IMG/VR virus record: IMGVR_UViG_3300035156_000171
Span: 1 to 45,573 of that record
Length of the DNA stretch: 45,573 nucleotides
DNA from: a virus
Reading direction: 5' to 3' (one strand)
Part shown: positions 1 through 16,015 of the stretch, in pieces
Numbering within the stretch: position 1 is the stretch's first letter
Layout of the letters: each line of letters starts with the position of its first letter
Made by a program: the position numbers and the translations under genes
The notes under the pieces: model-generated
Databases searched by the model: none
What the model was told of the DNA's origin: nothing
Seen by the model: only the letters and a program-made list of their open reading frames with translations

Positions 1-127
1 CGAGCTGGCCGTAAAGCTGACGAAGGACGGACAGAACGTCATCTCCGGCGAGGGCGTCGAGGGGCGGCTCGTCGCCAAGCGTGCGGCCGAACTCGCGGGC
101 TACACGTTCGGGTTGCCGCTGGGGCAG
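1..127. repeat. Terminal direct repeat copy A (identical to 45447..45573)
   Basis: Base-by-base identity of cgagctggccgtaaagctgacg...ggttgccgctggggcag at both window ends. Confidence 0.95.
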
Positions 128-235
128 GCGGTGGGCATCGGCTCGAATGTGTGGCAAGGGATGGAGCAAGGCGACTTGAAGGCGAAAGACATTTTGTTCA
201 GTCGCCGGTCGTTTGGTGACACGCGCGACCAATAG
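1..235 (+). CDS. C-terminal end of the same giant ORF (reading frame starts at nt 2; non-redundant part is 128..235)
   Basis: Frame 2 translates ELAVKLTKDGQNVISGEGVEGRLVAKRAAELAGYTFGLPLGQAVGIGSNVWQGMEQGDLKAKDILFSRRSFGDTRDQ* with TAG at 233..235. It is in phase with the frame at the window end. Confidence 0.85.
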   Translation, partial: ELAVKLTKDGQNVISGEGVEGRLVAKRAAELAGYTFGLPLGQAVGIGSNVWQGMEQGDLKAKDILFSRRSFGDTRDQ

Positions 236-1969: not shown

Positions 1970-2372
1970 AGCGAAGGCCTGGGCCGATATCGTTATAAGC
2001 ATCGTTGTCGCCGTTGGCGGCGGCGGCACAGTCGCGGCCGTAATCGGCTACATGAAGTCGAAGCGCGAGCCTCCAGCGCATATCGCTCCCCCGACGCCTG
2101 CGGGCGGGATCGCGCAACAGATCGGCGGAATGGTCCTTTCGCAGACGGCCGTCGAGGGGATCACGGCGGCCCTCAATGCCCTTGCGGTGGCGTACACCGC
2201 TCACACCCTCCAGTGCGCGGCCGACAACAAGTCCAGGCGCGAGGAGATGGAAGCGCAGCGCAAGCATGAGCGCGATCTTGCGAGCGACGCGCAGCGCGAG
2301 ATGAAGACGTTAAACGACCATCTCGACACGCTCGGAACCCGCATCAAGAATATGCCGGGGTGCGGTGCCTAG
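1956..2372 (+). CDS. N-terminal TM plus coiled-coil protein (138 aa), i-spanin/Rz-like or holin accessory
   Basis: ATG 1956. TM segment WADIVISIVVAVGGGGTVAAVIGY followed by charged helical REEMEAQRKHERDLASDAQREMKTLNDHLDTL. Last gene of the rightward block. Confidence 0.45.
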   Translation: MSPVEAKAWADIVISIVVAVGGGGTVAAVIGYMKSKREPPAHIAPPTPAGGIAQQIGGMVLSQTAVEGITAALNALAVAYTAHTLQCAADNKSRREEMEAQRKHERDLASDAQREMKTLNDHLDTLGTRIKNMPGCGA

Positions 2373-2752
2373 TTCCGCAGGCTGCGCGCGGCGATCCCGT
2401 TCTCGACAGCGGCGCGGTGTGCGTCTATTTTGCCGCCCATGATCTCGACGCGAAGTGGCAGCAGGCCATCGTGGATCGCGGCGTATTCGCGCCAGGACTT
2501 GCGGCCCGCGCGCTGCCTCTCGTCTTCCTGACGCCATTCGAGGGCGAGGCGGCAGACGATCGTCCAGAGCCCGCGCGCCTTGGCAAGGCCGCGCTCGTAC
2601 CGCACCATCATGAACAGGTCGTATAGCTGAGCGCCGCGCGTCATGCGCCGATTGTTGAACGCCTTGCGGCACTCGACGGCGCAGAATGAATTCGTGTCGC
2701 GGTCGCGCTTGGCGGTGAAAGGCAGGCCGCATTCCCGGCAGTTCGTGCACAT
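2369..2752 (-). CDS. Zinc-ribbon protein (127 aa), function unknown
   Basis: Internal ATG 2752 with GGGGACGGA upstream. N-terminus is MCTNCRECG...FCAVECRK (CxxC...CxxxC). It lies 57 bp downstream of palindrome copy 1. Confidence 0.6.
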   Translation of the reverse strand: MCTNCRECGLPFTAKRDRDTNSFCAVECRKAFNNRRMTRGAQLYDLFMMVRYERGLAKARGLWTIVCRLALEWRQEDERQRAGRKSWREYAAIHDGLLPLRVEIMGGKIDAHRAAVENGIAARSLRN

Positions 2753-2808
2753 TGATCCGTCCCCACGGTATCGGCTAGTCGCCAGCCGCGGGGACGGTGT
2801 AGGTGGTA

Positions 2809-2825
2809 GTTGACAGCGTGTCAAC
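2809..2825 (-). promoter_or_regulatory. Palindrome copy 1, GTTGACAGCGTGTCAAC (TTGACA -35-like on both strands): putative promoter/operator
   Basis: Perfect 7-N3-7 inverted repeat between the stop at 2828 and the start at 2752. On the minus strand, TACACC lies 17 nt after TTGACA. Confidence 0.55.
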
Positions 2826-2827
2826 AG

Positions 2828-3250
2828 CTACGCGACGCGACGGCTCCGGCGGCCGGTGGCGACCTCCTCGATCGCTTCGGACTGCTGATCTCCCTCGGAC
2901 TGAACCTCGATCACGGCGTCATCGGCTTCTTCGCCGATCCGGTCATGATGCGTGCCGTTCACGCTTACGCGCGATGGCTCCTCCTCGGTCGCGCCACCGC
3001 TGCCCGGCCCGGTGGACTGCGTGTCGACCGTCTCGGGCATGGTCGCCGGGGTCTCGGGCTTCTCGCGGCTCGTGTAGCGGTGGTCGACGCCGATCACGAC
3101 AGCGCCGGCCGTCGCCAGCTTGTCGAGCGTGCCGTAATCCTTGGCCGCCTGGATCGCGGTCGCCTTCGCCGTAGTGTCGTTCAAGTCCTTCGGGTTCACG
3201 GGAAGAAACATCTTCACCGTGAGGGCGTACCCCTGTTCGCGCTTTGCCAT
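2828..3250 (-). CDS. Hypothetical protein (140 aa, acidic C-terminal half)
   Basis: ORF in the track, GC3-rich, in the leftward gene array. Confidence 0.6.
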   Translation of the reverse strand: MAKREQGYALTVKMFLPVNPKDLNDTTAKATAIQAAKDYGTLDKLATAGAVVIGVDHRYTSREKPETPATMPETVDTQSTGPGSGGATEEEPSRVSVNGTHHDRIGEEADDAVIEVQSEGDQQSEAIEEVATGRRSRRVA

Positions 3251-3280
3251 GTCATCGGTTCCTGTGCTGATTTGCGGTGA

Positions 3281-3457
3281 TTACGAGCGCGCGGTGCGCG
3301 TCCGATTGAACTGTTCTTTTTCGCCCTCCGGCTGGTAGCCCTCGCGCTTGTCGCGCCAGTATTTCCAGCCTTGATTGGCGTGAGGACGGCCCATGCGGGC
3401 CTCTTTCCTGTACGCGGGCCTATACGATCCGGCCCGGCGCGGGTTTTTCTCTCCCAT
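3281..3457 (-). CDS. Small basic protein (58 aa), below the ORF-track cut-off
   Basis: ATG 3457 overlaps the upstream TGA (TGATG). Translates MGEKNPRRAGSYRPAYRKEARMGRPHANQGWKYWRDKREGYQPEGEKEQFNRTRTARS*. Confidence 0.45.
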   Translation of the reverse strand: MGEKNPRRAGSYRPAYRKEARMGRPHANQGWKYWRDKREGYQPEGEKEQFNRTRTARS

Positions 3458-4098
3458 CAAATGTACTCCTTTTCGGCCGGACTATCCGCGCCGTTCTCTC
3501 CTCTGACCTCGCCCGGCTCCGGGTCGCGATCGGGATTTCCATCGACGGCCTGGGCCGCCTGATTAAGTTCGTGCGAGATGGCGTCGAGCGCCGTGTTCGC
3601 GCGAGGGTCTAGGCCAGACCGGAATGCGACAAGAGCCGCGACCCCCTTGCCGGCCTCTGCCCTAGCGGCGGCGAACAAGCGATCCCGGCTGCTCGTCTTC
3701 GCCTCGGCAGCGATGGGCTTGACCGTGTACGGCGAGCGCTTGGCCCGCGTCACGGTCAGGGCCATCGTCACGTCGCGCTCGATGTCTGAGACGTGGCTGA
3801 TCCGAATGCCGCCGACTTTCATGCCGCCGAACATCACGTCTTTATCGCAATACAGCGTCATGCGCCGCCCGGCATAGGACGCGCCGTCCGCGCCCCACAC
3901 CGATATGAGAACGCGCCGCATCGACTTGCACGGCTTGTAGGGCTTGCCGTTGTCGCCCTCGAAACTGATCGCGACAGGCTGATCGGGGTCAGAGGCGCGA
4001 GAGACCTTTACGACCTTGATCGTGCGCGGGCCGGCGATCAAGTCGTCGGCGTTGAGTTGGTCGCTCTTGGGAGCGATGGTTTGGGATAGATCAGTCAT
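3457..4098 (-). CDS. Conserved-looking phage protein (213 aa), candidate single-strand annealing or ssDNA-binding partner of the exonuclease
   Basis: Overlaps the exonuclease stop. Core sequence is KPCKSMRRVLISVWG...MFGGMKVGGIRISHV. I cannot name a family. Confidence 0.6.
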   Translation of the reverse strand: MTDLSQTIAPKSDQLNADDLIAGPRTIKVVKVSRASDPDQPVAISFEGDNGKPYKPCKSMRRVLISVWGADGASYAGRRMTLYCDKDVMFGGMKVGGIRISHVSDIERDVTMALTVTRAKRSPYTVKPIAAEAKTSSRDRLFAAARAEAGKGVAALVAFRSGLDPRANTALDAISHELNQAAQAVDGNPDRDPEPGEVRGENGADSPAEKEYI

Positions 4099-4790
4099 AC
4101 GACGATGTCCTGAATTTTGCGCTCGGTCGGCACGGCTTTCGACGAAAGGACGGCTTCTTCATATTTTAAACGGGCAAGATGAAGCCTCTCCTCGAAACCT
4201 GCGGCAGCGTGTAGGATCGCCGACTGCACATTGTCATCGGGATACGCGCGTATCACGGCCATCGGCAGGCCGCCGGAATACGAGACCACGTCGCACCACG
4301 CCCGCTCTGTGACAAGCAGTCCGGTCTGAACCTGAAGCATGAATTCAGCAGGAACGGTGCCGTCGTACACGTCGACAACGAACGTCTCGACCTGATACTT
4401 TTGCCGCCGTGACTTGGCCTCGACAAGGCCGTCCTCGCTCACGATCGCGTCCGGCGAATAGCCGATCGTGAAGCCCCATTGGTCGTTCGTGATGAAACCG
4501 ACCCGCTCGATTGGGCTGTGGCGTTCGGAGTAGATGCGAAGCGCCTCGACCTCGTCCTCGATACCGCGAAGCATGTCGAAACTGACGTAATGCGGCTCGA
4601 CATATTTCGTAATCCGCTGGGCCAGCAACTCATACAGGTGCGAACGCTCCTTTTCGTTGCTCGCAATCTTGAGCGTTGGCGTAAGGATCAAATTCATTTC
4701 GCTCGCCGTGAGCAATCCGCAACGCGCGGCAAGCCATTCGTCCGACCCCTGCACTAGGTCGGCGTGAATCGTGATGTGAGAGCCGTTCAT
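4095..4790 (-). CDS. YqaJ / lambda-exonuclease-like PD-(D/E)xK recombination exonuclease (231 aa)
   Basis: GSDEWLAARCGLLTASE (YqaJ N-terminal signature) and YSPDAIV..DGLVEAKS..Q (D...ExK). Internal ATG 4790 overlaps the upstream stop. Confidence 0.8.
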   Translation of the reverse strand: MNGSHITIHADLVQGSDEWLAARCGLLTASEMNLILTPTLKIASNEKERSHLYELLAQRITKYVEPHYVSFDMLRGIEDEVEALRIYSERHSPIERVGFITNDQWGFTIGYSPDAIVSEDGLVEAKSRRQKYQVETFVVDVYDGTVPAEFMLQVQTGLLVTERAWCDVVSYSGGLPMAVIRAYPDDNVQSAILHAAAGFEERLHLARLKYEEAVLSSKAVPTERKIQDIVV

Positions 4791-5047
4791 CACAGGCCCT
4801 CCACAGGCGCGTATTCTATAGACAAGGAAAACTTGAAGCCACCTTCCATCATGGCAGACCACGCCTCGCGAAGCGCATCGACGGCGGTTGGCCCTCGACC
4901 CGTCGCTTTGACCTCAAGCGCGCGATCCCGGAACGACACCGCCGCAGACCACCTTATCTCAGGCGAGATGTAGCTTTCGCTATGTCGCATAAGGGCGAAG
5001 TCGCCGCCGTGACGGTCGATCGTATCGAAAATTTCCTCAAAGTTCAT
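4790..5047 (-). CDS. Hypothetical protein (85 aa), first gene of the leftward recombination block
   Basis: ATG 5047, 42 bp from palindrome copy 2. GC3-rich. Confidence 0.6.
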   Translation of the reverse strand: MNFEEIFDTIDRHGGDFALMRHSESYISPEIRWSAAVSFRDRALEVKATGRGPTAVDALREAWSAMMEGGFKFSLSIEYAPVEGL

Positions 5048-5088
5048 GGCCTTGCCTTTCAGTGTCCCCGCCGCCATTTGCACCGATA

Positions 5089-5105
5089 GTTGACAGCGTG
5101 TCAAC
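5089..5105. promoter_or_regulatory. Palindrome copy 2, GTTGACAGCGTGTCAAC, in the 78-bp divergent intergenic region: shared back-to-back -35 elements / operator
   Basis: Lies between leftward ATG 5047 and rightward ATG 5126. Minus strand: TTGACA-17 nt-GCAAAT. Plus strand: TTGACA-16 to 18 nt-GATATGCG, ending 6-8 nt before ATG 5126. Confidence 0.6.
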
Positions 5106-5125
5106 GCGCTTGATATGCGTGGCTC

Positions 5126-5437
5126 ATGAGCATCGAGAACACCCCAGCCGGTCGGCTTGTCGCCCTGTTCGCGGAACCCGGAGCCGGTGGGCAGCACGGC
5201 CACGGCCTGGCTAGATTTTGCGAAGCTTCCGGTCTGCACAAGTCGACCGTATCGCGGTGGCTCTCGACGACAGCCAAGCGTGCGACGGCGGGGCAAATAC
5301 CCGATCGGTTCCACGCGGACGTGATTGCCGCCGTCGACAAGGCGGGTATGCCTCGATCCGTGCTGCGCCCGATCCTGCCGGCCGTGTCGACCTGCCCACG
5401 GTGTGGGTCGGCTATCGCGCCGGGGCAGCGGGCGTGA
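5126..5437 (+). CDS. Cro/YdaS-like helix-turn-helix regulator (103 aa)
   Basis: GLHKSTVSRWL HTH-like segment. No Shine-Dalgarno upstream, so possibly leaderless. First gene of the rightward island, next to the palindrome. Confidence 0.6.
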   Translation: MSIENTPAGRLVALFAEPGAGGQHGHGLARFCEASGLHKSTVSRWLSTTAKRATAGQIPDRFHADVIAAVDKAGMPRSVLRPILPAVSTCPRCGSAIAPGQRA

Positions 5438-6177
5438 TCCATTACCACGGGACGCCCATCTCACCGGCTGATGTTTTTCTGACGCTCCGAGGCCGTCATT
5501 TCTGCGTGTCGCATGCGCAGCCGCAGGACATCGAGCGCGCGCACAAGGTTGGGCAAGGCGTCATGCTCGACAACGGGGCTTTTACGAAGTGGAAGAAAAA
5601 CCGGCCGACCGATTGGCCGTCGTTCTACGAGTGGTGCGATAGATGGCTCGCGCACCCGAACACATGGGCTGTGATCCCTGACGTCATCGACGCTGGGGCG
5701 CAGCTACAGGACGCTCTTTTGCGCGAATGGCCGTTCGGGCATCGGGGCGCACCCGTCTGGCATATGGACGAGCCGCTTGGCCGGCTGTCCAAGCTCACCC
5801 TCGAATGGCCGCGCGTGTGCATCGGATCGACTGCGGAATTCGCTCGCGTGTTGTCTGATCCTTGGCGCGGCCGGATGGATGAATGTTGGAACGAGCTGGC
5901 CCGGCATCATCGACGCACGCCTCCGGTTCACATGCTCCGGGGGATGCAGTGCTCTGGCCGCGAGTGGCCGTTCGCGAGTGTCGACAGCTCTGACATCGCG
6001 CAAAATCACAACCGCCCGTACAACACCGCGCTCGACATGGCGAACCGCTGGGACGCGATGCAATGCCCTGGCGCGTGGTTGCCGCCGGAGGATCGCAAGC
6101 TGTTCGCCCTCGGGCGCGCGCCTCGATCGGCGAAAGAGCGCTTCGATCATTATGCAGCGATGGCTTCCGAGATATGA
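5434..6177 (+). CDS. DpdA-like (TGT-fold) putative 7-deazaguanine DNA transglycosylase (247 aa)
   Basis: GTG 5434 overlaps the upstream TGA. The blocks HYHGTP, VMLDNGAFTKW, FYEW, AVIPDVIDAG and APVWHMDE resemble the DSGAFS, LDVIGD and PVFH blocks I recall from phage DpdA proteins. This rests on recollection only. Confidence 0.45.
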   Translation: MIHYHGTPISPADVFLTLRGRHFCVSHAQPQDIERAHKVGQGVMLDNGAFTKWKKNRPTDWPSFYEWCDRWLAHPNTWAVIPDVIDAGAQLQDALLREWPFGHRGAPVWHMDEPLGRLSKLTLEWPRVCIGSTAEFARVLSDPWRGRMDECWNELARHHRRTPPVHMLRGMQCSGREWPFASVDSSDIAQNHNRPYNTALDMANRWDAMQCPGAWLPPEDRKLFALGRAPRSAKERFDHYAAMASEI

Positions 6178-7652
6178 ACCTCCTCTCGCCGACGCCTCGC
6201 CCGATCGAGCTGCGCCCGTTCCAGTCGGACATGATCGATCAGACCCGCGCGGCGCTCCAGCGGCACAAAGCGGTCATGGTCCAGATGCCGACCGGCGCTG
6301 GGAAGACTGTCACGGCGGCTGCGATGATGCAGGGCGCGGTCCAGCGCGGCGGGCGGCCCTGGTTCGTCTGCCATCGCGATTTTCTCGTAGATCAAACGAG
6401 CCTAACCCTGGAGCGGTTCGGCCTCGATCACGCTTTCATCTCTGCCGGTCGACGCTGGAACCCGTACCTGCCCGCTCAGGTCTGCTCGATCGACACGCTC
6501 CGCAATCGGCTCGGGCGCGTCCCTGACGCCTGCCGGCCGACTGTGTTGTTCGTGGACGAGGCCAAGCATTCGAGTGCGGCGTCGTGGTCCGGCGTGATCC
6601 GCTGGGCGATCGAGAACGGAGCGAAGGTGGTTGGCCTCGACGCAACGCCCAAGCGACTAGACGGAAAGGGTCTCGACGACTTGTACGGGGCGATGATCCT
6701 GGGGCCGTCCGTCGAGTGGCTGATCGAGCAAGGCTACCTGTCGCGCTACCGCGCGTTCGCGCCGACCATGCCGGACCTGTCTGGCGTCGGCACGCGGGCC
6801 GGAGACTACAACGCCGAACAGCTCGGCGAGGTGATGGATCGCGACAGCCTGACCGGGAACCTCGTCGAGCATTACCTGCGGCTCGCGCCCGGCAAACGGG
6901 CGATCTATTTCTGTGTGAGCGTCATGCATTCGCAGCACGTCGCGGCGGCTTTCCGCGCGGCCGGCGTTTCTGCCGTCCACCTCGACGCGGCCTCGCCCTC
7001 AGACGAGCGCCGGTCGGCCGCGCGTGGCATGGCGATCGGCGAGATTGACGTGATCTGCAACGTCGCACTGTTTGGTGAGGGATACGATCTTGCGGCGCAA
7101 GCCGGCATGGATGTCACGGTGGAGTGCGTGGGCCTCGCTCGCCCGACGAAGTCGCTCGCGATGGCAATGCAGCAAATGGGGCGGGCTCTGCGGCCGAAGC
7201 CCGATGCGGCGATCATCCTCGATCATGCCGGCATCCTCACGGACCCGGCGATTGGCCTGCCGGATGCCGATCGGGAATGGACCCTGGAAGGCACGGCGCG
7301 CAAGTCGAAGAAATCCGCGCCGACCGCACCGCCCGTTCGCGTGTGCCCGAAATGCTTTGCGACGTGCGGCGCGTCCTCGCGGGCGTGCGTCGAGTGCGGC
7401 GAGCCGTTCCCGATCGACGCGCGGATGATGGCAGAGAACGACGATACGCTCGTCGAGATAGACCCGGCCGAACTCAAGCGCGTGCGGAAGATGCAGGAGC
7501 ATCAAGCGACGACGCTCGACGATCTGGTCGCTGTCGGTCAGGCGAGGGGGTATGCCAAACCGAAAATTTGGGCGGCCAATTTGTGGGCTGCGCGCGAGCG
7601 AACCCGGCATGCTCGGACTGAGCAGGCTGCGGCTCAACAGAAGTTGTGGTGA
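6174..7652 (+). CDS. Superfamily-2 DEAD/DEAH-type DNA helicase with a C-terminal zinc ribbon (492 aa)
   Basis: MPTGAGKT (Walker A), VDEAKH (Walker B), LDATP (motif III), QQMGRALR (motif VI), CPKCFATCG...CVECG. ATGA overlap with the upstream gene. Confidence 0.85.
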   Translation: MNLLSPTPRPIELRPFQSDMIDQTRAALQRHKAVMVQMPTGAGKTVTAAAMMQGAVQRGGRPWFVCHRDFLVDQTSLTLERFGLDHAFISAGRRWNPYLPAQVCSIDTLRNRLGRVPDACRPTVLFVDEAKHSSAASWSGVIRWAIENGAKVVGLDATPKRLDGKGLDDLYGAMILGPSVEWLIEQGYLSRYRAFAPTMPDLSGVGTRAGDYNAEQLGEVMDRDSLTGNLVEHYLRLAPGKRAIYFCVSVMHSQHVAAAFRAAGVSAVHLDAASPSDERRSAARGMAIGEIDVICNVALFGEGYDLAAQAGMDVTVECVGLARPTKSLAMAMQQMGRALRPKPDAAIILDHAGILTDPAIGLPDADREWTLEGTARKSKKSAPTAPPVRVCPKCFATCGASSRACVECGEPFPIDARMMAENDDTLVEIDPAELKRVRKMQEHQATTLDDLVAVGQARGYAKPKIWAANLWAARERTRHARTEQAAAQQKLW

Positions 7653-7654
7653 CA

Positions 7655-7903
7655 ATGGACCAGTGGCGACCAATCGAGACCGCGCCGAAGGACGGGACCA
7701 TTGTTCTGCTGGGCGGCGGAACCTGGGGTGATGACGAATTGGCCGAGGCTCCGCGCTCGATGTCGGCGCGGTATTACGAGCGCCGGTGGGATGGCCGGCT
7801 ATTTAGCTATTGGGTCGTTTTTTCCGCAGAAGCGGGGCATAGTCTTTTTCCATATGAAAACCCGACGCATTGGCAACCCATGCCGTCCGGCCCTGTCGCA
7901 TGA
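7655..7903 (+). CDS. Small conserved phage protein (82 aa) with a WxPIETAPKDGT motif
   Basis: MDQWRPIETAPKDGTIVLLGG is a motif common in proteobacterial prophage small proteins. I do not recall the family name. Confidence 0.55.
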   Translation: MDQWRPIETAPKDGTIVLLGGGTWGDDELAEAPRSMSARYYERRWDGRLFSYWVVFSAEAGHSLFPYENPTHWQPMPSGPVA

Positions 7904-8160
7904 ACCCGGACGACACTTGGATCGCGCGGTACATGCTGCGCGACGGCCTGACGGAGGGCGCGGTAGCGCGCATCCTGGGTGTCTCGATCGAGGCTGTGAT
8001 GCTTGTGGTCCCGTTGCGCGACAGGTTGGGCAAGCGCATATCGCCGGCCTACGTCGCGGCGGCGGATCGCAGCGCGGCGAAACAACGGCAGGGGCGCAGA
8101 GATGCACGAGCGCGACTTAATCAACCCGATCCTGCTCAAGGCGTCGAAGATCGGGTGTAG
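7900..8160 (+). CDS. Small HTH-like protein (86 aa)
   Basis: ATGA overlap at 7900. LTEGAVARILGVSIEAV is HTH-like. Overlaps the next gene by 59 nt, so the 3' end or the call is uncertain. Confidence 0.45.
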   Translation: MNPDDTWIARYMLRDGLTEGAVARILGVSIEAVMLVVPLRDRLGKRISPAYVAAADRSAAKQRQGRRDARARLNQPDPAQGVEDRV

Positions 8161-8491
8161 GTTGTTCCGGGTGAACACCGGCGTCGGGTGGGTCGGCCGG
8201 GTCATCTCCAAGACGACGGGCCGGATTATACTCGGCGACCCGCGCCCGCTCCATGCCGGCCTATGCGCTGGCGGGTCTGATATCATTGGCTTGCGGCGCG
8301 TCACGATCACGCCGGACATGGTCGGCACGGTCATCGCTCAGTTCGTGGCGATCGAGGTCAAGACGCCCGGCGACAAGCAGAGCGACGAGCAAGAGCGGTT
8401 CCTAGAAATGGTTCGGGCCTCCGGCGGTTTCGCGCTGGAGGCCCGTGACGTTGATTCGGTCTTGGCAGCGTTAAGCGAGCGTGCGGGATAG
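8102..8491 (+). CDS. VRR-NUC domain nuclease (129 aa)
   Basis: GGSDIIGL...VAIEVKTPGDKQSDEQERFLEMV matches the VRR-NUC D...ExK...Q pattern. Confidence 0.75.
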   Translation: MHERDLINPILLKASKIGCRLFRVNTGVGWVGRVISKTTGRIILGDPRPLHAGLCAGGSDIIGLRRVTITPDMVGTVIAQFVAIEVKTPGDKQSDEQERFLEMVRASGGFALEARDVDSVLAALSERAG

Positions 8492-8644
8492 GACCGCCTC
8501 GACCATCGCGCGGTGCGCCTCCAGCGCGAGATGCAGGCCGTAGGCCGCACTCGCGATCCCGAAGTTGACGCGACCGCCGCCAGCCTCGGATGTCTGCCGG
8601 TCAAGCTCGCGCCAGAAGCGGAGGAATTCGGTTTCCTGTTTCAT
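8471..8644 (-). CDS. Small hypothetical protein (57 aa), below the ORF-track cut-off
   Basis: GGGGA Shine-Dalgarno 6 nt before ATG 8644. MKQETEFLRFWRELDRQTSEAGGGRVNFGIASAAYGLHLALEAHRAMVEAVLSRTLA*. GC3-rich. Its 3' end overlaps the convergent VRR-NUC gene by 21 nt. Confidence 0.4.
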   Translation of the reverse strand: MKQETEFLRFWRELDRQTSEAGGGRVNFGIASAAYGLHLALEAHRAMVEAVLSRTLA

Positions 8645-8668
8645 GATGCGTCCCCGTGTTGCGGTTGT

Positions 8669-8690
8669 GGCCGCGCCGGGTGGCGCGGCC
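8669..8690 (-). other. GC hairpin (9-bp perfect stem GGCCGCGCC/GGCGCGGCC, 4-nt loop) without a U-tract
   Basis: Lies between the stop at 8699 and the start at 8644. Possible attenuator, processing or stability element. Confidence 0.35.
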
Positions 8691-8698
8691 GGCGGTGG

Positions 8699-9097
8699 TT
8701 AGAAGCTGTAATCGTGATATGCGCGGCGCTCGCCGAGCCGGAGCCCCTTGCCCCCGGTCTTGTTCCAGCGGTTCGTTTCGGGGTTCTTGCGGACTGGAGC
8801 CCATTTACCAGAAACTTCGCGCTTGTACGTGGAGCGGTATCCGTCCGGGTTCGATGTGTAGCTGTATTCCTGACACTCGCTCATACCGTTGCTGTCGGTG
8901 CGGGTCGCGGTGTCGTCTGTTACTTCGATGAACGTAGACTTCCCTACCGTGAATACGCGCTGGATCGTCCCGGCGCTGCGGTCCGTCCAGCCGAGCATGG
9001 TGACACCCATGCCGGCTTCCGGCTCGGGCTGGCGCACAACCATACGGCTGTAAAGGTGGTTCTGAAGGCTGTTTGTCTCGGTGCCGATACGCATCAT
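8699..9097 (-). CDS. Hypothetical protein (132 aa)
   Basis: ORF in the track. Start is 54 bp downstream of palindrome copy 3. Confidence 0.6.
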   Translation of the reverse strand: MMRIGTETNSLQNHLYSRMVVRQPEPEAGMGVTMLGWTDRSAGTIQRVFTVGKSTFIEVTDDTATRTDSNGMSECQEYSYTSNPDGYRSTYKREVSGKWAPVRKNPETNRWNKTGGKGLRLGERRAYHDYSF

Positions 9098-9150
9098 TTT
9101 TCCCCGTTTTATCGTCTAGTCGCGAGCCGCCCGACTTCTCTACACGTCGA

Positions 9151-9167
9151 GTTGACACGCTGTCAAC
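9151..9167 (-). promoter_or_regulatory. Palindrome copy 3, GTTGACACGCTGTCAAC: putative promoter/operator
   Basis: Perfect 7-N3-7 palindrome in the 169-bp intergenic region. On the minus strand, TTGACA is followed 17-18 nt later by GTAGAGA. Confidence 0.55.
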
Positions 9168-9188
9168 CCGGTACGCGGCGCAACGCGA

Positions 9189-9220
9189 AACGCCCGCCAG
9201 GGGCGAACCTGACGGGCGTT
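9189..9220 (-). terminator. Putative terminator hairpin for the upstream leftward genes
   Basis: 8-bp stem AACGCCCG/CGGGCGTT, followed on the minus strand by TCGCGTTG. Lies between the stop at 9267 and palindrome copy 3. Confidence 0.4.
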
Positions 9221-9266
9221 CCTCAAGCGCGGGGACGCTGATAGGCGGTGAAGCCCGGTCAGATTT

Positions 9267-9503
9267 CTAGCCGTGCGTCGCTACAGCGTCAAGCGTGCGC
9301 TGCGCGGCGATGGCTTCCCGGATCGTCTGCTCGTGATCCTGCATGAACGCGAGCGTGTTCCTGACGCTCCGCAGCACGGCCATGTGGTATTCGACCTGAC
9401 CTTCCGGCACCTTGGCCTTGCGCAACGTGGCGCGCATGTGGATCGTAACCGTGTCGAGCGTCAACATCTGCATCGACAGGCTGTGCCGCGTCTTAGTTTC
9501 CAT
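9267..9503 (-). CDS. Hypothetical protein (78 aa)
   Basis: ORF in the track. Overlaps the primase stop by 11 nt. Confidence 0.55.
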   Translation of the reverse strand: METKTRHSLSMQMLTLDTVTIHMRATLRKAKVPEGQVEYHMAVLRSVRNTLAFMQDHEQTIREAIAAQRTLDAVATHG

Positions 9504-11973
9504 CGTCCCCTCCCTCGATCACGTAACACGGTATCAGCCGGCCATCGACCCGGCGGCGAACGCGCACATACCCGCGCGACTTGAGGTGCGACGCGATCCG
9601 CCGCTCATGCTGGTCATTCCGCAGGTGCTTCGGGATATCAAGGAAGGTGAACAGCGCGCCCATCGTAAGCGGCATCGTCCCGACCATCGAGTTCAGGTAG
9701 GCGTCAAGGTCTCCGGCCCAAGCGTCCTCGACGTAGCGTGCCGCCTGCACCTCGGACGCGTGGTCGTTTTCTTCGCCCTCAAGCCACCACTTCATGCCGG
9801 CCCGGTAGAGGTGGACCGCCTCGGCCCAAAGCTGGTCGCGATCGGCGGCCAGTCCGTCGATGTCCATTGGGCGCGTCACGCGGACGGGCCAGAAGCGTCG
9901 AGCCCCAGTCGGATCGCGTAGGTATCCCCGGCCACCTGGGTTGACGGTTCCGGCAAGCACGCACCGCCTGGGAATGTTCACGACGATCTTGCCGTATGGG
10001 AGGCGGATGCGGTCAACCTTCGTCGAGACCCACCGCTTGATCCCGTCCGGGTCCGATTTTCCGAAGCCGTTCAGCTCGGCAATTTCGACTATGACTGTAC
10101 CCTGCATCTGCATCACTGCGTCTTTGCTTGATATGTCGTCGATGCTGTCGACGAAATATCTGCGCCCGTTCATGGTCGCCAAGGTTTCAAGCGCAGTAGA
10201 CTTATGCTTTCCTTGCGTTCCCTCGAAGATCAACATCGTATCGACCTTCTCGCCGTCCGGGTTCGTCGACAGGTTCCGAGCCACGGCGGCGAGGAGCCAT
10301 TTTGCACCAAACACGCGCTCGATACCGTTCGCAGTCGGCGTGACGCCCATATACCGCTCAAGCCATGACACTTCGCCCATCACGCGCGAGACGCCGTCCC
10401 ATTTCAGCGCCTCAAGGTAGTCTCGTATCGGGTCGAACGCGGCGCTCTCGGCGACCGTCATGATTGCCGTGCCGGCCTCATTCGTCTTCGGCGTCATGCC
10501 GCACTTTTCTAGGAAGGTTTGGCAGAGCGTGATGTCGTTATCCCGGAGCGTGCGCGGCACCCACGGCGCGGATGACTTTTCCCACGGCGGGCGCTTCGCA
10601 AGCACGACCTCGGCGGTGAAAGTGTTCTTCACGAATACGCCGCGCGTCAGCTCGTGGTGCCGGAGGGTCGCGACGAAATTGTACATGAGCCGTTTGCGCG
10701 GCCCATTGTTCTCGTCGAGCAACCAATACGCCTGAATAGGCGTGCGATCGACGTGATCCTCCTCCGGGTGGGCTGTCGGGAATTTTACGACATTTCCCTT
10801 GCCCGGCGGGCTCTCGGCCGCTGACGGTGCCTTCTTGGCGATTTCCGGCTTTGGCTTCGGTTGCCCGGTCTGGATCAAGGCCGGCGTCGGCTCTGGCGCT
10901 GGCGGCTCGGGGTCGGGCTCGGGTTCGGGTTCGGGGATGCCCGGAGGAGCGTCCCTGAGGTGAGCCCGCGCCCATTTCATCGCCCGCTTGGCGTCCCACC
11001 CCTCAGCCTCGGCGTCGGCCAGGTCCCATCCCTTCGGCATGTCTGCCGGCGGATCAACGATCTTTACCTGCGCCGCGCCGGCCCGCTCGATCATTTCGGC
11101 GAGCCCGAGTTTGTGGTTCGCGCCCTCGCCCCATCCGTCGACCGTTTTTAGACCCTCTTCGTCGGCGTCCCGCCAGATGACGACGCGCCGGCCGGCAAGA
11201 GGCGTCCAATCCGTCTTGCTCGCCGCTTTCCCGCCGCCGCACCACGTCACGGTCGCGAACGACTTGAGCATCCTTTCGCCCGCGTCGGCGCACTTCTCGC
11301 CCTCGACGACTAGCACCTGGGCGTCTGGTCTCAGCGCGAGGCGGTCTAGGCCGTACATGCGACGGGGCTCGCGCATCGGCCGGTGCGTCCATCCTTGCTC
11401 GCCGGTCCTCACGTTGCGGCACCACAGAATGCAAGGTGTGACCTTGGAGCCGTCGATGTCGACCCGGAGCACGTATCCGAACGTCCGGCCGGTGACGAGC
11501 CGGTACGGGTGAACGAGTGTCGGCGTGTAACTCGTAATGGGTTTGTCGGGGCGCTTCGGATTGAATAATGCTGGCGTGCGCTGCCCGGCTTTCAGCGGGG
11601 GCGCGTCGTCAGGCGGCATCGAGGCGACCCAATCCGCATATGGGTCGAACTGCTCGATCGGCGGGCTCGCCGGTTGCCGAAACCCGTCCGGTTTGCGGTC
11701 GCCGTTCAAGATTTCGCACGCGCCCTGAAAGTCGACGCCGTCGAACAGCTCGACGAACTTGACCACATCGCCGTTCTTGCCACAGCCGAAGCAATGGAAC
11801 CGCTGCCCGTCCTCTCGGGCCGGGTAGATCGTGAACGACGGCGTCGTCTCGCTGTGGAGCGGGCAACAGGCGCGCCATTCCGCGCCGTCCCGCTTGATCG
11901 AGATGCCTCTTAGCGGCAGGTAATCCGACAGGTTGTTCGCCTGCCGAATTCCTTGCGTGTCGAATTTTGCCAC
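9493..11973 (-). CDS. Bifunctional primase/helicase: CHC2 zinc finger, Toprim domain, Pro-rich linker and VirE-like P-loop NTPase (826 aa)
   Basis: CCPLHSETTPSFTIY...FHCFGCGKNGDVVKF (DnaG CHC2). VLVVEGEKCADAG and VIWRDADEEG (Toprim E, DxD). PEPEPEPDPEPPAPEP linker. MLIFEGTQGKHKSTALETLA (VirE-type Walker A). Confidence 0.9.
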   Translation of the reverse strand: MAKFDTQGIRQANNLSDYLPLRGISIKRDGAEWRACCPLHSETTPSFTIYPAREDGQRFHCFGCGKNGDVVKFVELFDGVDFQGACEILNGDRKPDGFRQPASPPIEQFDPYADWVASMPPDDAPPLKAGQRTPALFNPKRPDKPITSYTPTLVHPYRLVTGRTFGYVLRVDIDGSKVTPCILWCRNVRTGEQGWTHRPMREPRRMYGLDRLALRPDAQVLVVEGEKCADAGERMLKSFATVTWCGGGKAASKTDWTPLAGRRVVIWRDADEEGLKTVDGWGEGANHKLGLAEMIERAGAAQVKIVDPPADMPKGWDLADAEAEGWDAKRAMKWARAHLRDAPPGIPEPEPEPDPEPPAPEPTPALIQTGQPKPKPEIAKKAPSAAESPPGKGNVVKFPTAHPEEDHVDRTPIQAYWLLDENNGPRKRLMYNFVATLRHHELTRGVFVKNTFTAEVVLAKRPPWEKSSAPWVPRTLRDNDITLCQTFLEKCGMTPKTNEAGTAIMTVAESAAFDPIRDYLEALKWDGVSRVMGEVSWLERYMGVTPTANGIERVFGAKWLLAAVARNLSTNPDGEKVDTMLIFEGTQGKHKSTALETLATMNGRRYFVDSIDDISSKDAVMQMQGTVIVEIAELNGFGKSDPDGIKRWVSTKVDRIRLPYGKIVVNIPRRCVLAGTVNPGGRGYLRDPTGARRFWPVRVTRPMDIDGLAADRDQLWAEAVHLYRAGMKWWLEGEENDHASEVQAARYVEDAWAGDLDAYLNSMVGTMPLTMGALFTFLDIPKHLRNDQHERRIASHLKSRGYVRVRRRVDGRLIPCYVIEGGDDGN

Positions 11974-12010
11974 CGGTCCCCCGAGCGCTAATCGTCCGGT
12001 ATATCCCGGC

Positions 12011-12127
12011 TTAGGCCGGCAAGGCGACCCATGCGAAAGCGGCAGCGAGCCACATGATCGAGATGCCGATGATGTCGAGGATCATCGCGCGTCGGTAGGC
12101 GCGGTCGGTATGTTCGTTCGTTGTCAT
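12011..12127 (-). CDS. Small membrane protein (38 aa)
   Basis: GGGGGA Shine-Dalgarno before ATG 12127. MTTNEHTDRAYRRAMILDIIGISIMWLAAAFAWVALPA. Lies 44 bp downstream of palindrome copy 4. Confidence 0.4.
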   Translation of the reverse strand: MTTNEHTDRAYRRAMILDIIGISIMWLAAAFAWVALPA

Positions 12128-12170
12128 GGCAAGCGTCCCCCTGGTTGCCGATTGATCGTGATCGCAATAA

Positions 12171-12187
12171 GTTGACAGAGTGTCAAC
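12171..12187 (-). promoter_or_regulatory. Palindrome copy 4, GTTGACAGAGTGTCAAC: putative promoter/operator
   Basis: Perfect 7-N3-7 palindrome. It contains the TGA stop of the 12183..12452 gene. An A/T-containing hexamer (GATCAC) lies 17 nt after the minus-strand TTGACA. Confidence 0.55.
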
Positions 12188-12452
12188 CGGACTGGGGATT
12201 ACCCCCGGCTTCAATGATTTTCGGGGCAACAGGCCGACAGAGAATGCAGGCCTTCAGCCCGGAGCCGCACGCGAGGTGGACGTTGCCGTTTGTTCTGAGA
12301 TTGCCGCGGCACTCGATCGCGTAGCCGTTGCGCCCGCCAACCTCGACGTTCGCTATATACGGGGCTTGGCCGACGAGCCGGTTGATGAGCCAGAAACGGG
12401 CGGCCTCGCCACGGCTCTCTATTAGGGCGATTATTTGTTTACCGATCAGCAT
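12183..12452 (-). CDS. Hypothetical protein (89 aa)
   Basis: GC3-rich codons. Overlaps the upstream gene by 14 nt. Confidence 0.5.
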   Translation of the reverse strand: MLIGKQIIALIESRGEAARFWLINRLVGQAPYIANVEVGGRNGYAIECRGNLRTNGNVHLACGSGLKACILCRPVAPKIIEAGGNPQSG

Positions 12453-12678
12453 TACTTGTCCCTTGTTTATGCGATAGGGAGGAATTACCGGCGTCTGTAA
12501 TGCGGACGATGCCTTTGAGGGGCGCTACTTCGGCCCATCCTCTAGCGACTAGCGAAGAAACGAACAAATCATCATCGTCGTCGAGTAATTTAAGATGCGC
12601 CAACTCGACCTGATGGACCCACTGCCCGCTGCGGGCGAGGTGCGTCAGGAGGCGCGTCTGCTCTGGCGTTGGCTTCAC
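12439..12678 (-). CDS. Hypothetical protein (79 aa), possibly winged-helix
   Basis: AAGGAGG Shine-Dalgarno 6 nt before GTG 12678, which overlaps the upstream TGA (GTGA). Contains an acidic DDDDD run. Confidence 0.5.
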   Translation of the reverse strand: MKPTPEQTRLLTHLARSGQWVHQVELAHLKLLDDDDDLFVSSLVARGWAEVAPLKGIVRITDAGNSSLSHKQGTSNADR

Positions 12679-12965
12679 GGCGTTCCTCCTTCGGAACGTG
12701 GTGTGAGGGCGTCCAGGTCGGCGGCAACGCCAGGGCACGCGCACGCGCCGGGGATCGGGCAACCGGGCGGCTCAATCTGTCCGGGCGCGCGCTCAATCGT
12801 GGCGCGAAGGGCGGTGATCTCGCGTGCTTGTCGCCCAATCTCGGCCTCAAGCTCGGCGAGGAGGCGTTCGGCAGCTTCGGCGCGGGTGCGCCACGCCAAT
12901 CCGATGCGCTTGATCTCTCGTAGGTCCCATTCCTGGGGGCTGAGGAACTCGTCATCGTCCGGCAT
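12675..12965 (-). CDS. Coiled-coil protein with a Cys-rich tail (96 aa)
   Basis: ATG 12965 overlaps the upstream TAA (TAATG). AEAAERLLAELEAEIGRQAREITALRATIE, then CPIPGACACPG. Confidence 0.55.
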   Translation of the reverse strand: MPDDDEFLSPQEWDLREIKRIGLAWRTRAEAAERLLAELEAEIGRQAREITALRATIERAPGQIEPPGCPIPGACACPGVAADLDALTPRSEGGTP

Positions 12966-13198
12966 TACGTCGGCTCCCCGTTGTCGAAAGTGCCCGCCAC
13001 GCCGAACGGCATGTTGAGGCCCCATTTCCTGGCAAACCGCCGTGCGCCCTGTGCGTCTGTCAGTCGGCTGTAGTTCGTGGGATACCGAAGCCGGCTCCCG
13101 GAGTAATAGCGGTCGACCATCCAAGTCAGGCGGTAGTCACCCGCGCCCAAGCGCTGGATGCGGTGGCCGTAGCTGCCGGCCGAGCTGTGCCGGCTCAT
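12965..13198 (-). CDS. Hypothetical protein (77 aa)
   Basis: ORF in the track. Start/stop-coupled on both sides. Confidence 0.55.
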   Translation of the reverse strand: MSRHSSAGSYGHRIQRLGAGDYRLTWMVDRYYSGSRLRYPTNYSRLTDAQGARRFARKWGLNMPFGVAGTFDNGEPT

Positions 13199-13521
13199 CG
13201 CGACTGCCCTCCGAACGGCATGCCGCCGTGGGGCTCGGGCGACGGGTCGGTGGGTGTTGGTACTGGGGCCGCCTTCGCCTCACGCTTGCGGATTTCCTCG
13301 CCCGCGCGGTAGCAGGCCCACGCGATCATCTTCCGAGACGCGGCGTCCCACCGATCGCGACCCGCGCCGTCGAAACCTTGCCAGAAGAAGTTGGCGACGG
13401 CGTTCCCTGTGTGGCGTCCGCCGTCAGCGCGGATCAGGTCGCGGTGCTTCGTGTCGTAGCAGTGGATGCAGGCGTCGAACTGCCGACGCATCACGGCGTC
13501 CTTGAACGGGTTGCAGATCAT
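13195..13521 (-). CDS. Hypothetical protein (108 aa)
   Basis: Internal ATG 13521 overlaps the upstream TGA (ATGA). MICNPFKDAVMRRQFDACIHCYDTKHRD... Confidence 0.55.
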   Translation of the reverse strand: MICNPFKDAVMRRQFDACIHCYDTKHRDLIRADGGRHTGNAVANFFWQGFDGAGRDRWDAASRKMIAWACYRAGEEIRKREAKAAPVPTPTDPSPEPHGGMPFGGQSR

Positions 13522-14723
13522 GACTGCGCCTCCCGGCCCGCGCCCGCTGGCGGGGTGACGCGCGCGGAGAGGAGGGAGAGGACGGCGCGAGCCTTCGAGA
13601 CCGACAGAGTGATGAAGCCTTCCGCGCTGCCCCATCCTCGTGCGGACGGGTTCGTCAGGCCACTGCGGATTTCCTCTGCGATCTCCTCCCGCATCGTGTC
13701 CGCGCCCGCTGTAAGGCCGCCTTCGGTGGGTGGGGTGCGGAGAGCGGCGAGCGATAGGATGCAGTAGCCCTCCTGCAAGCCGAACTCGCCGGGGCGCAGG
13801 ATGTTTGTGATGCGTCGATCAACCGGCGGGTCGTCGCTGTAGCCGGTCTCGGGCGCGTAGCACCGCAGCCGGATCGTCTGCCCAACCTCGTAGCCGCTCC
13901 GGTCGTCCTTGCGGAACTCGAATGTCTTCAGGCCATCGCGGCACTGATAGAAGACGCTCGGGTGCGCCTTAAACTCGTGGGCGATCTTCTGCTCCTTGGC
14001 CGCCGTCTCGTGAGCAGCGCTCCTCACGACAGGGAACTCGGCAAACGGCCCGATGCGGTCGTTGCGGGGCGGGAGGGGTGGCGCCTCGGGTTGAGAGGGA
14101 TGAAGGATGTACCGGACAAGGGCGAACGTGGACTTGAAGCATCGGCCGTGGCCGCTGTCGTCGAGCATGCCGTTGAGGCGTGCCCAGTCCTTGTCGTCGA
14201 AGGCTTCGAACAGGCTCCGCAGCTTGTCCGAGCACGGGGCCGGCGTCTCGGGCTGGGTGCGGACGAGAGCGTGGCTGATCTCGCGAACGGCAGTGAAGTG
14301 CTCGGGCCTCAACCACTTTAGAACTTCGACATAGCCCTCCCCCGCGCCGCGCTGATCCAGTTCGTCAGCAACCGCAACGAACGGCTTCAGCGCACCTGAC
14401 AGTACTTGCAGGCGCCCTGCCAAGCCGTCTACCTCTTCCGATCCGGGAACCAGCCTCGGCCCTGCTGCCAGATCGTGCCCGTGATTTTGTAGTTCCAAGC
14501 CCACTTCAGGGCCGCCCATATCCGGCGCATTGGCTTTCGTCCTTTCGTGTGCGGGTGAGATGGAGGCGATAACATCCTCGATCTTCGTCAGCGTCTGCTT
14601 GCCCAAGCTGTCGGGCGGGCCTTCCCCGTATTGATCCTCAACGGCGAGTAAGCATTCGCGGGCGGCCTTCAACGCCTCGATTGCGGAGCTGCGATGTTCT
14701 TCTAGGATTTCCTGTGCCATCAC
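13518..14723 (-). CDS. Two-part protein (401 aa): unknown N-terminal region plus a DUF3850/ASCH (PUA-like) domain
   Basis: HEFKAHPSVFYQCRDGLKTFEFRKDDRSGYEVGQTIRLRCY...QEGYCILSL fits the DUF3850 pattern HELK..P..F..G.K.FE.R.NDR.Y.VGD.L.L. Confidence 0.65.
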   Translation of the reverse strand: MMAQEILEEHRSSAIEALKAARECLLAVEDQYGEGPPDSLGKQTLTKIEDVIASISPAHERTKANAPDMGGPEVGLELQNHGHDLAAGPRLVPGSEEVDGLAGRLQVLSGALKPFVAVADELDQRGAGEGYVEVLKWLRPEHFTAVREISHALVRTQPETPAPCSDKLRSLFEAFDDKDWARLNGMLDDSGHGRCFKSTFALVRYILHPSQPEAPPLPPRNDRIGPFAEFPVVRSAAHETAAKEQKIAHEFKAHPSVFYQCRDGLKTFEFRKDDRSGYEVGQTIRLRCYAPETGYSDDPPVDRRITNILRPGEFGLQEGYCILSLAALRTPPTEGGLTAGADTMREEIAEEIRSGLTNPSARGWGSAEGFITLSVSKARAVLSLLSARVTPPAGAGREAQS

Positions 14724-14735
14724 TATTACTCGCTT

Positions 14736-15647: not shown

Positions 15648-16015
15648 TTCGCGTCCCCTTGTTTCGTTCGCTTCAGCGTCTCATGATTTACCCGGCCATC
15701 GTTCCGCATCCCGAATTTTTCACGCACGCGGCGAATTCTGTCGACGACCTCCTGCCGGCCTGCGATCCTCGCCGCGTGCTCGGCTGGGGCGTATTTGTCC
15801 ATCAACACAGCGCCCATCGCGATCGCCCGCGCGCGGTATCCCTTCGAGATGTCGTAGTGCTCCCACGAAGCCTTGGGCGGGCACTGGAACCAACGCCGCA
15901 GCCTGGGATCGAGCCGGCCCGCGAACTCGTGCAACTCCTCAACGCTGTCGGCCCAGAGGTGGCACATCTTCATCCGGCCAAACCGATGTTCGACGTTGTC
16001 GACGTACACGGTCAT
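15644..16015 (-). CDS. DUF4031 family protein (123 aa)
   Basis: MTVYVDNVEHRFGRMKMCHLWADSVEELHEFAGRL...WEHYDIS matches the DUF4031 pattern, including the HYD motif. Confidence 0.7.
   Translation of the reverse strand: MTVYVDNVEHRFGRMKMCHLWADSVEELHEFAGRLDPRLRRWFQCPPKASWEHYDISKGYRARAIAMGAVLMDKYAPAEHAARIAGRQEVVDRIRRVREKFGMRNDGRVNHETLKRTKQGDAK

Follow-up and report, generated by a model that had tools for sequence, protein, structure and literature searches.

The IMG/VR virus record IMGVR_UViG_3300035156_000171 comprises 45,573 nucleotides (positions 1 to 45,573), and this whole stretch is called the window throughout the text. At 5434..6177 its + strand carries an open reading frame (ORF) of 247 amino acids (aa) plus stop, a dpdA-like gene whose product is a predicted DNA guanine transglycosylase of the phage DpdA family. 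Phage DpdA inserts 7-cyano-7-deazaguanine (preQ0) into DNA, and deletion of dpdA in phage CAjan abolishes the modification (PMC6884629). The original prediction, made from the window's letters only, compared the protein with DpdA and with tRNA-guanine transglycosylase (TGT) and suggested a 7-deazaguanine modification of DNA by a phage that has no precursor genes of its own.

The dpdA-like gene and its start

Translation confirms the 247-aa ORF together with the four motif blocks on which that suggestion was built, GVMLDNGAFTKW, FYEW, AVIPDVIDAG and APVWHMDE. The gene is coupled to both of its neighbours, as had been noticed: the GTG at 5434 with which it starts shares bases with the TGA that ends the upstream ORF 5126..5437 (GTGA), and its own TGA stop (6175-6177) overlaps the ATG of a helicase gene at 6174 (ATGA). 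Because homologues begin with MIHYHGTPITP, 5434 is the correct start. The automatic gene call on public contigs (5506-6177, protein P0001) uses an internal GTG and is too short, since the resulting 223 aa drop the conserved N-terminal strand MIHYHGTPI with its nearly invariant H5, G6 and P8. The GC content by codon position (0.64/0.50/0.74) follows the coding pattern of this genome. At its C terminus the protein carries an extension of about 22 aa that homologues do not have.

Membership in the phage DpdA family

Among the PHROGs, the protein matches phrog_887, "queuine tRNA-ribosyltransferase", with E 7.4e-42 over residues 1-191. When it was searched by tblastn against 50,697 phage genomes, 103 records matched, the best of them with 59-67% identity (Pseudanabaena phage Pam5, Rhizobium phage RHph_N3_2, Microcystis phage Mae-JY30 and Caulobacter phage DMCA). 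SfI, BTP1, SPN3UB, Athena1 and related enterobacterial and Vibrio phages come next, with 36-40% identity and E values of 1e-30 to 1e-36. The group of SfI, BTP1, SPN3UB and Athena1 is on record as carrying DpdA without other genes of the pathway (Hutinet 2019, Supplementary Data 1, PMC6884629).

More distant relationships were assessed with a profile (alignment A2) of 64 diverse homologues, 29-72% identical to the query. Compared by hhalign with DpdA of Salmonella phage 7-11, the profile reaches a probability of 100% (E 2.6e-46), and BLASTP detects the same protein at 31% identity (E 2e-27). With DpdA of phage 9g the probability is 98.1% (E 1.2e-13, 155 columns), and the alignment pairs LDNGAFS with LDSGAFS, PVWH with PCFH and FASVDS with YSCDSS, while the region of D83 is aligned approximately. 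The blocks DSGAFS and PVFH, named at the outset as typical of phage DpdA proteins, thus find their counterparts in LDNGAFT and PVWH. Judged by sequence, the 247-aa protein is a member of the phage DpdA family; phrog_887, both hhalign comparisons and the viral structure models described below all speak for the DpdA-like assignment made at the outset.

Active site and fold

In alignment A2, D83, H110, G131, H166 and D184 are invariant down to 29% identity, and H5, G6, P8, D46, G48, A49, P82, I85, V108, R169, P179 and S185 are conserved in at least 90% of sequences. The structure of Salmonella DpdA (PDB 7UI4) assigns Asp95 as general acid/base, Phe99 as stacking on the base, Asp130 and His181 as base-reading residues and Asp256 as nucleophile (PMC10164549). 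By their order and motif context, D46 (with F50), D83, H110 and D184 fit the scheme of Asp95, Asp130, His181 and Asp256 and would be their equivalents. The whole motif set, namely the Asp of LD(S/N)GAF, a second Asp, the His of PxxH and the Asp of xDS, is present. Salmonella DpdA further has a structural zinc site (PMC10164549). No such site (CxCxxC...H after the nucleophile Asp) is found in the 247-aa protein, where a single Cys (C211) and a single His (H192) follow D184, and no zinc-site column is conserved in alignment A2. The 9g DpdA sequence likewise has no Cys cluster in that region.

AlphaFold2, run on the diverse alignment, returned a model of alternating strands and helices with a predicted local distance difference test (pLDDT) score of 95.8 and a predicted template modelling score (pTM) of 0.88. 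D46, D83, H110 and D184 lie at or just past the C-terminal ends of model strands 42-46, 77-80, 108-110 and 182-185, which is where the active site of a TIM barrel is expected. The predicted fold is clearly a TIM barrel. Foldseek against BFVD, performed with the first model (pLDDT 80.4), found a "queuine tRNA-ribosyltransferase" model of Arthrobacter phage Mufasa8 (E 4.6e-8, template modelling (TM) score 0.60), further models with this annotation from phages Sonali (Arthrobacter), R5C (Dinoroseobacter) and Megan (Microbacterium), a Mycobacterium phage and a rudivirus, and a weak match to a Cellulophaga phage phiST protein. The structure prediction that had been proposed as a check therefore gives the TIM barrel and the viral DpdA models. 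Its other part, similarity to TGT in the PDB, came out weakly, at rank 19 and lower: 6fso stands at rank 19 (E 0.027, TMq 0.47), ArcTGT 1j2b at rank 26 and 3bld at rank 47, with E values of 0.03-0.12. Salmonella DpdA 7UI4 was not found among the top 50 PDB matches.

Absence of precursor genes from a complete genome

Identical sequences of 127 bases occupy the two ends of the window (1-127 and 45447-45573) and form an exact terminal direct repeat. An ORF at 39358..45573 runs off the right end and resumes at 2..235, giving a protein of 2107 aa. Because of the repeat and of this ORF joined across the ends, the window is a complete circular assembly of a genome of about 45.4 kb. Public metagenome data (SRR10954965 and ERZ27253086) yielded this contig in two assemblies, with lengths of 45,476 and 45,587 bp.

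Since the assembly is complete, a gene missing from it is missing from the phage genome altogether. In Pfam scans, the 55 called ORFs that cover the genome gave no GTP cyclohydrolase I, PTPS/QueD, QueC, radical-SAM QueE or Vut_1/YhhQ, and no DNA methyltransferase domain; PHROGs searches with 13 early-region proteins gave no methyltransferase either. Hidden Markov models (HMMs) of YhhQ, QueD and QueE, built from the genes that adjoin relatives of the dpdA-like protein, had no match in the six-frame translation of the window even at E<=10. The reported absence of folE, queD, queE, queC and DNA methyltransferase genes is thus borne out. Whole-genome Pfam scans and PADLOC searches of the neighbouring genes revealed no ParB-like, DpdB or DpdC match, and no dpdD-K restriction genes were found in the genome. 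The downstream helicase resembles PADLOC DpdF in a weak, partial and generic superfamily 2 (SF2) manner (E 4.6e-6 over 87 residues). Having no 7-deazaguanine genes, the phage falls into the published DpdA-only group and is not thereby excluded from the family. Genomic association with genes of 7-deazaguanine synthesis or salvage is lacking here and is seen across the clade, as described next.

Relatives and their gene neighbourhoods

The family is large. In a 90%-clustered collection, 7,808 of 8,000 scored candidates matched at E<=1e-5; the wider family found by profile search contains 832 clusters at 50% identity (E<=1e-3), and at least 590 IMG/VR contigs encode a relative. The clade of the window protein is 64-75% identical within itself across many contigs. 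Close relatives in bacterial genomes come mostly from Alphaproteobacteria (Methylobacterium, Methylorubrum, Bosea, other Rhizobiales, Beijerinckiaceae, Brevundimonas, Devosia, Acetobacter and sphingomonads). The clade is large, mostly associated with Alphaproteobacteria and unrepresented among characterised enzymes.

We searched six-frame ORFs of 113 related loci with seeds from phages 9g, DMCA, Pam5 and RHph_N3_2, and then with family HMMs. In 71 of these loci a gene for YhhQ, QueD, QueE or QueC stands directly beside the homologue. The YhhQ/Vut_1 transporter is the only such neighbour in 42 loci and is accompanied by QueC in one, so that it occurs in 43 altogether (L002, L003, L015, L017, L021, L038 and about 37 more), always within about 470 bp of the homologue. 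QueD occurs alone in 19 loci and together with a QueE-like radical-SAM gene in 9; none of the four is present in the remaining 42, and FolE was found in none of the 113. Each of these 7-deazapurine neighbours shares the strand of its homologue; the majority abut or overlap it, and the most distant one lies about 500 bp away. Pfam confirms them as Vut_1, PTPS, Radical_SAM and QueC. Such linkage provides strong and independent support for the view that members of the clade work with 7-deazaguanine bases. The YhhQ family imports preQ0 and its 7-aminomethyl counterpart preQ1. The clade-specific pairing of YhhQ with DpdA appears not to have been described before; in the earlier survey YhhQ correlated with no phage group (Hutinet 2019, PMC6884629).

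Where at least 4 kb of sequence is available on both flanks (54 loci), 20 homologues have none of these genes. These loci are mostly alphaproteobacterial, chiefly from genomes of Methylobacterium, Bosea and other Rhizobiales, and contain the closest relatives of the window protein. The stand-alone arrangement is thus both frequent and stable. The nine loci with QueD and the QueE-like gene beside DpdA (L029, L089, L090 and L094-L099) have no QueC or FolE within 8-10 kb; their gene set would end at 7-carboxy-7-deazaguanine (CDG) unless the host completes the pathway. Clustering of ORFs within 2.5 kb of the homologues in search of another conserved partner gave only YhhQ, QueD, a 92-aa family (12 loci), integrases and recombination genes.

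One of the relatives, in Labrys, is found in prophage sequence that also encodes RecT and an integrase. In L006 (Labrys portucalensis prophage), a gene for a 662-aa C5 DNA methyltransferase at 8016-10004 overlaps the start of the DpdA homologue, and genes for two distinct enzymes of DNA modification appear, from this overlap, to be translationally coupled in one prophage.

Genes around dpdA in the window

The dpdA-like gene belongs to a + strand block, 5126..8491, flanked by - strand genes at 2369..4862 and 8471..16515, an arrangement correctly recognised before as an inverted island. The block is preceded by a divergent intergenic region of 263 bp (4863..5125), which on the ORF map separates it from a YqaJ-like exonuclease gene on the - strand (4095..4862, Pfam YqaJ match). 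This region is the presumed promoter region of the block, and a promoter scan found no sigma-70 consensus promoter in it.

The first ORF of the block (5126..5437, +) encodes 103 aa with a zinc-ribbon-like CxxC end at the C terminus, and its TGA stop overlaps the dpdA GTG. It gave weak matches to HTH_IclR (E 2.9e-4, below the Pfam cut-off), Zn_ribbon (E 0.13) and PHROG repressor families (E 0.015-0.08). It is probably a helix-turn-helix protein; the earlier label of a Cro-like helix-turn-helix gene is backed weakly by these matches.

Downstream, at 6174..7652 (+), follows the gene for a 492-aa SF2 DNA helicase with ResIII and Helicase_C domains (Pfam E 4.9e-17 and 1.4e-7; phrog_16, 4.4e-88) and a C-terminal zinc ribbon, in agreement with what had been proposed. 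Its ATG overlaps the dpdA stop, and the ATGA overlap suggests co-translation of both genes. As a conserved DpdA partner the helicase was rejected: a homologous helicase adjoins DpdA in just 6 of the 113 related loci (L050, L078 and L096-L099, directly after DpdA in the last four, as in the window), and 3 of the 6 are near-identical contigs. The block continues with an 85-aa ORF at 7646..7903 (+; Pfam DUF551 at E 0.009, below cut-off, and no PHROG match) and ends with a gene for a 129-aa VRR-NUC nuclease at 8102..8491 (+; Pfam VRR_NUC 6.7e-8). Most simply, the helicase and the VRR-NUC nuclease form a replication/recombination module in which dpdA happens to sit.

Proposed function

We suggest that the gene probably encodes a stand-alone phage DpdA, which would exchange guanine in phage DNA after replication for a 7-deazaguanine made by the host, likely preQ0. 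By analogy with characterised DpdA and TGT enzymes, the reaction would begin with a nucleophilic attack by Asp184 on C1' of a deoxyguanosine in double-stranded phage DNA, through which the guanine is released. Asp46 would serve as general acid/base, and Asp83 with His110 would recognise the base. The vacated position would then be filled by a free 7-deazaguanine base. Because the phage has neither FolE, QueD, QueE and QueC nor YhhQ, the base must come from the host; it would be drawn from the pool of queuosine precursors, most likely as preQ0. Host restriction systems would cut DNA with modified sites less readily. We infer the DNA substrate, preQ0 as the base, the roles of individual residues and any protective effect, and the fraction of modified guanines may be very low, with sparse sites.

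Such phages are not unusual, and the gene extends a known class. DpdA-only phages were the largest group in the survey of Hutinet 2019, 76 of 182 viruses, and their hosts generally encode the full queuosine pathway, Clostridium and Mycobacterium excepted (PMC6884629). The closest known counterparts are the group 3 singletons of that survey (7-11 YP_004782407, SfI, BTP1, SPN3UB, HK106 and Athena1). They belong to the same family at 31-40% identity, have about 225-250 aa, no Pfam TGT match and no zinc motif, and their genomes are without FolE, QueD, QueE and QueC, so that their substrate must likewise be the host's. The window protein differs from them in falling into a separate clade, mainly of alphaproteobacterial prophages and phages and of metagenomes, in being carried by a podovirus instead of a lambdoid or P22-like temperate phage, and in its C-terminal extension. 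Phage 7-11 moreover encodes a DNA methyltransferase, whereas the window phage does not.

Full-pathway phages with DpdA1 (Enterobacteria phage 9g AHN84519, Escherichia phage CAjan and Mycobacterium phage Rosebush) share the homologous core with LD(N/S)GAFS, P(V/C)(W/F)H and (S/C)DS, and presumably the same post-replication base-exchange chemistry on DNA. Their enzymes are, however, longer (about 317 aa), are encoded in clusters with FolE, QueD, QueE and either QueC or Gat-QueC, and replace 25-32% of G. The similarity lies below direct BLAST detection, and Nonagvirus and Seuratvirus are not prominent among the 103 tblastn matches. Bacterial DpdA (Salmonella Montevideo, 7UI4, acting with DpdB and DpdC) is of the same TIM-barrel transglycosylase superfamily and has the same order of conserved residues. 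In contrast to it, the window protein shows no PADLOC match, no zinc site and no DpdA-specific insertions, and the genome contains no DpdB ParB-like ATPase, no DpdC and no dpdD-K. TGT (PF01702) belongs distantly to the same superfamily according to the literature, and 6fso, 1j2b and 3bld are among the weak Foldseek matches; the window protein is about 130 residues shorter, without the zinc subdomain and the tRNA-recognition elements, and its expected substrate is DNA.

Several points weigh against the proposed function. Firstly, the supply of preQ0 in the host is assumed. Secondly, the protein has no Cys/His zinc site and the phage no DpdB-like ATPase, which the bacterial enzyme requires. Thirdly, a transporter or QueD stands beside the gene in many relatives, which suggests that the reaction is limited by its substrate, and neither is present here. 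Fourthly, just two DpdA-only phages were assayed: the DNA of 7-11 contained 50 2'-deoxy-7-amido-7-deazaguanosines (dADG) per 10^6 nucleotides, about 0.02% of G, and no preQ0 deoxynucleoside (dPreQ0), and the DNA of Orion, whose host is without the pathway, contained no modification (PMC6884629). Finally, general searches fail to place the protein. It matched no Pfam family at E<=1 (TGT PF01702 included), no NCBIfam family and no PADLOC family at E<=0.1 (the bacterial DpdA models included). HMMER against all PDB sequences gave chance matches only, both with the single protein and with profiles A1 and A2; the family profile reached an hhalign probability of 0.2% with E. coli TGT; and in PDB Foldseek searches with two models generic TIM barrels led, tryptophan synthase alpha among them. 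By the tests run, the protein thus falls neither under Pfam TGT nor into a bacterial Dpd system. None of these searches tied the protein directly to tRNA TGT, and the link therefore runs through the 9g DpdA. The published 7-11 DpdA likewise has no match in Pfam; for this reason the negative outcome of the PF01702 search, which had been put forward as a check, does not count against membership in the DpdA family.

Given the trace modification or none in the two assayed phages, the claim that dpdA is the only genome-protection function of this phage is not established. The same measurements bring up an explanation that we consider unlikely and yet worth attention: the DpdA-family enzyme would be effectively silent in a phage that has no genes of its own to make or import the precursor, would leave no or trace modification and no meaningful protection, and would be carried along in the replication module with little or no selective effect. 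Unmodified Orion and the 0.02% of G in 7-11 (PMC6884629) are in accord with it, as is the distribution of precursor and transporter genes (present in 71 of 113 relatives, none in the window), which suggests that the host pool alone is limiting. The Orion result is, however, explained by a host without the pathway. Identity of 64-75% maintained over many contigs with a putative catalytic set invariant down to 29% identity, and the 20 of 54 well-flanked relatives that also stand alone, both argue for selection on an active enzyme supplied by the host.

A still less likely explanation is that the stand-alone clade has diverged: it would retain transglycosylase or glycosylase chemistry but act on another substrate (CDG, preQ1, a salvaged base, host tRNA or host DNA), and might also form an ATP-dependent module with the SF2 helicase, similar to DpdA with DpdB. 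Functional divergence of singleton DpdAs was left open by Hutinet 2019, and 7-11 carries dADG instead of dPreQ0 (PMC6884629). The nine relatives with QueD and QueE and without QueC follow a pattern that stops at CDG. For a role of the helicase speak the ATGA overlap, the recurrence of the adjacency in the six loci named above and the requirement of bacterial DpdA for its ATPase partner DpdB (PMC10164549). Against it stand the low number of these loci with their three near-identical contigs, the failure to find any other conserved partner family and the fact that phage DpdA itself inserts preQ0 with no helper ATPase described (Hutinet 2019, PMC6884629). Further, the protein has no tRNA-binding or zinc subdomain. 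The bases imported by the YhhQ family are consistent with canonical substrates. One particular combination appears quite improbable: the clade, whose relatives repeatedly have QueD by itself or QueD and QueE without QueC and include 7-11 with its dADG, would insert CDG, a salvaged base imported by YhhQ or some other 7-deazapurine in place of preQ0, and the SF2 helicase would act here as an ATP-driven DNA-opening helper like DpdB. If true, phage DpdA would show a substrate specificity not seen before, or would work in a novel way as one of two proteins.

That the protein is not a DpdA at all, and is an unrelated TIM-barrel enzyme of superficial resemblance, would agree with the missing matches in Pfam, NCBIfam, PADLOC and PDB sequences, with the generic barrels and tryptophan synthase alpha at the head of the PDB Foldseek matches and with the lack of similarity to E. 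coli TGT, but we dismiss it as very improbable in view of phrog_887 (E 7e-42), of hhalign probabilities of 98-100% to two published DpdAs with motifs in register, of published DpdA-only phage proteins as direct tblastn relatives, of 7-deazapurine genes as the relatives' neighbours and of the 7-11 DpdA, which has no Pfam match either.

If the proposed stand-alone DpdA is active, a small podovirus would divert the host's queuosine-precursor pool with one 0.74-kb gene and no biosynthetic investment, and disguise its DNA from restriction. The usefulness of a stand-alone DpdA has been a question since 2019, and it bears on predicting phage resistance to restriction and CRISPR and on how sequence reads from environmental phage DNA are interpreted. 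In the literature covered, a search for subsequent experimental work on singleton DpdAs came up empty. The finding alone leaves existing knowledge unchanged; the clade, in which DpdA occurs alone, with a transporter or with QueD/QueE, represents a natural comparison series for testing whether host precursors are sufficient.

Other features of the genome

The phage is a BcepC6B/BPP-1/epsilon15-like podovirus. Pfam identified a T7-type portal, an epsilon15 GP7-type capsid protein, a nozzle protein, a small terminase subunit and an SLT/peptidase internal protein among the structural genes, and a primase-VapE protein, the YqaJ exonuclease and the VRR-NUC nuclease among the others; the GC content of the genome is 64%. 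The nearest counterparts of the capsid protein share just 50-58% identity with it; they include the capsid proteins of Burkholderia phages KL4 and BcepC6B and of Bordetella phage BPP-1, and are scattered over podoviruses of Burkholderia, Pseudomonas, Bordetella and enterobacteria. Bases 1-25000 had no megablast counterpart among isolated phages. In the whole window, Rfam recorded no family at gathering score, and hence no preQ1 riboswitch and no other known RNA, and no tRNA genes were found.

The 2107-aa protein joined across the ends has an N-terminal LPD22 "large polyvalent protein" domain and a zincin-like HESGH motif, and it probably resides inside the virion or is ejected from it. It showed no methyltransferase domain.

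Two further genes stand next to each other in the early - strand operon. The one at 14736-15647 (-) encodes 302 aa without a Pfam match, which agree from end to end with phrog_6247 "DNA topoisomerase" (E 1e-110); its N-terminal LRQLYYQ motif may resemble the catalytic-tyrosine region of Topo VI-A/Spo11-like "mini-A" proteins. The adjoining gene at 13518-14723 (-) encodes 401 aa with a C-terminal DUF3850 domain (ASCH/PUA-like; phrog_986 "RNA-binding protein") and 240 unannotated N-terminal residues.

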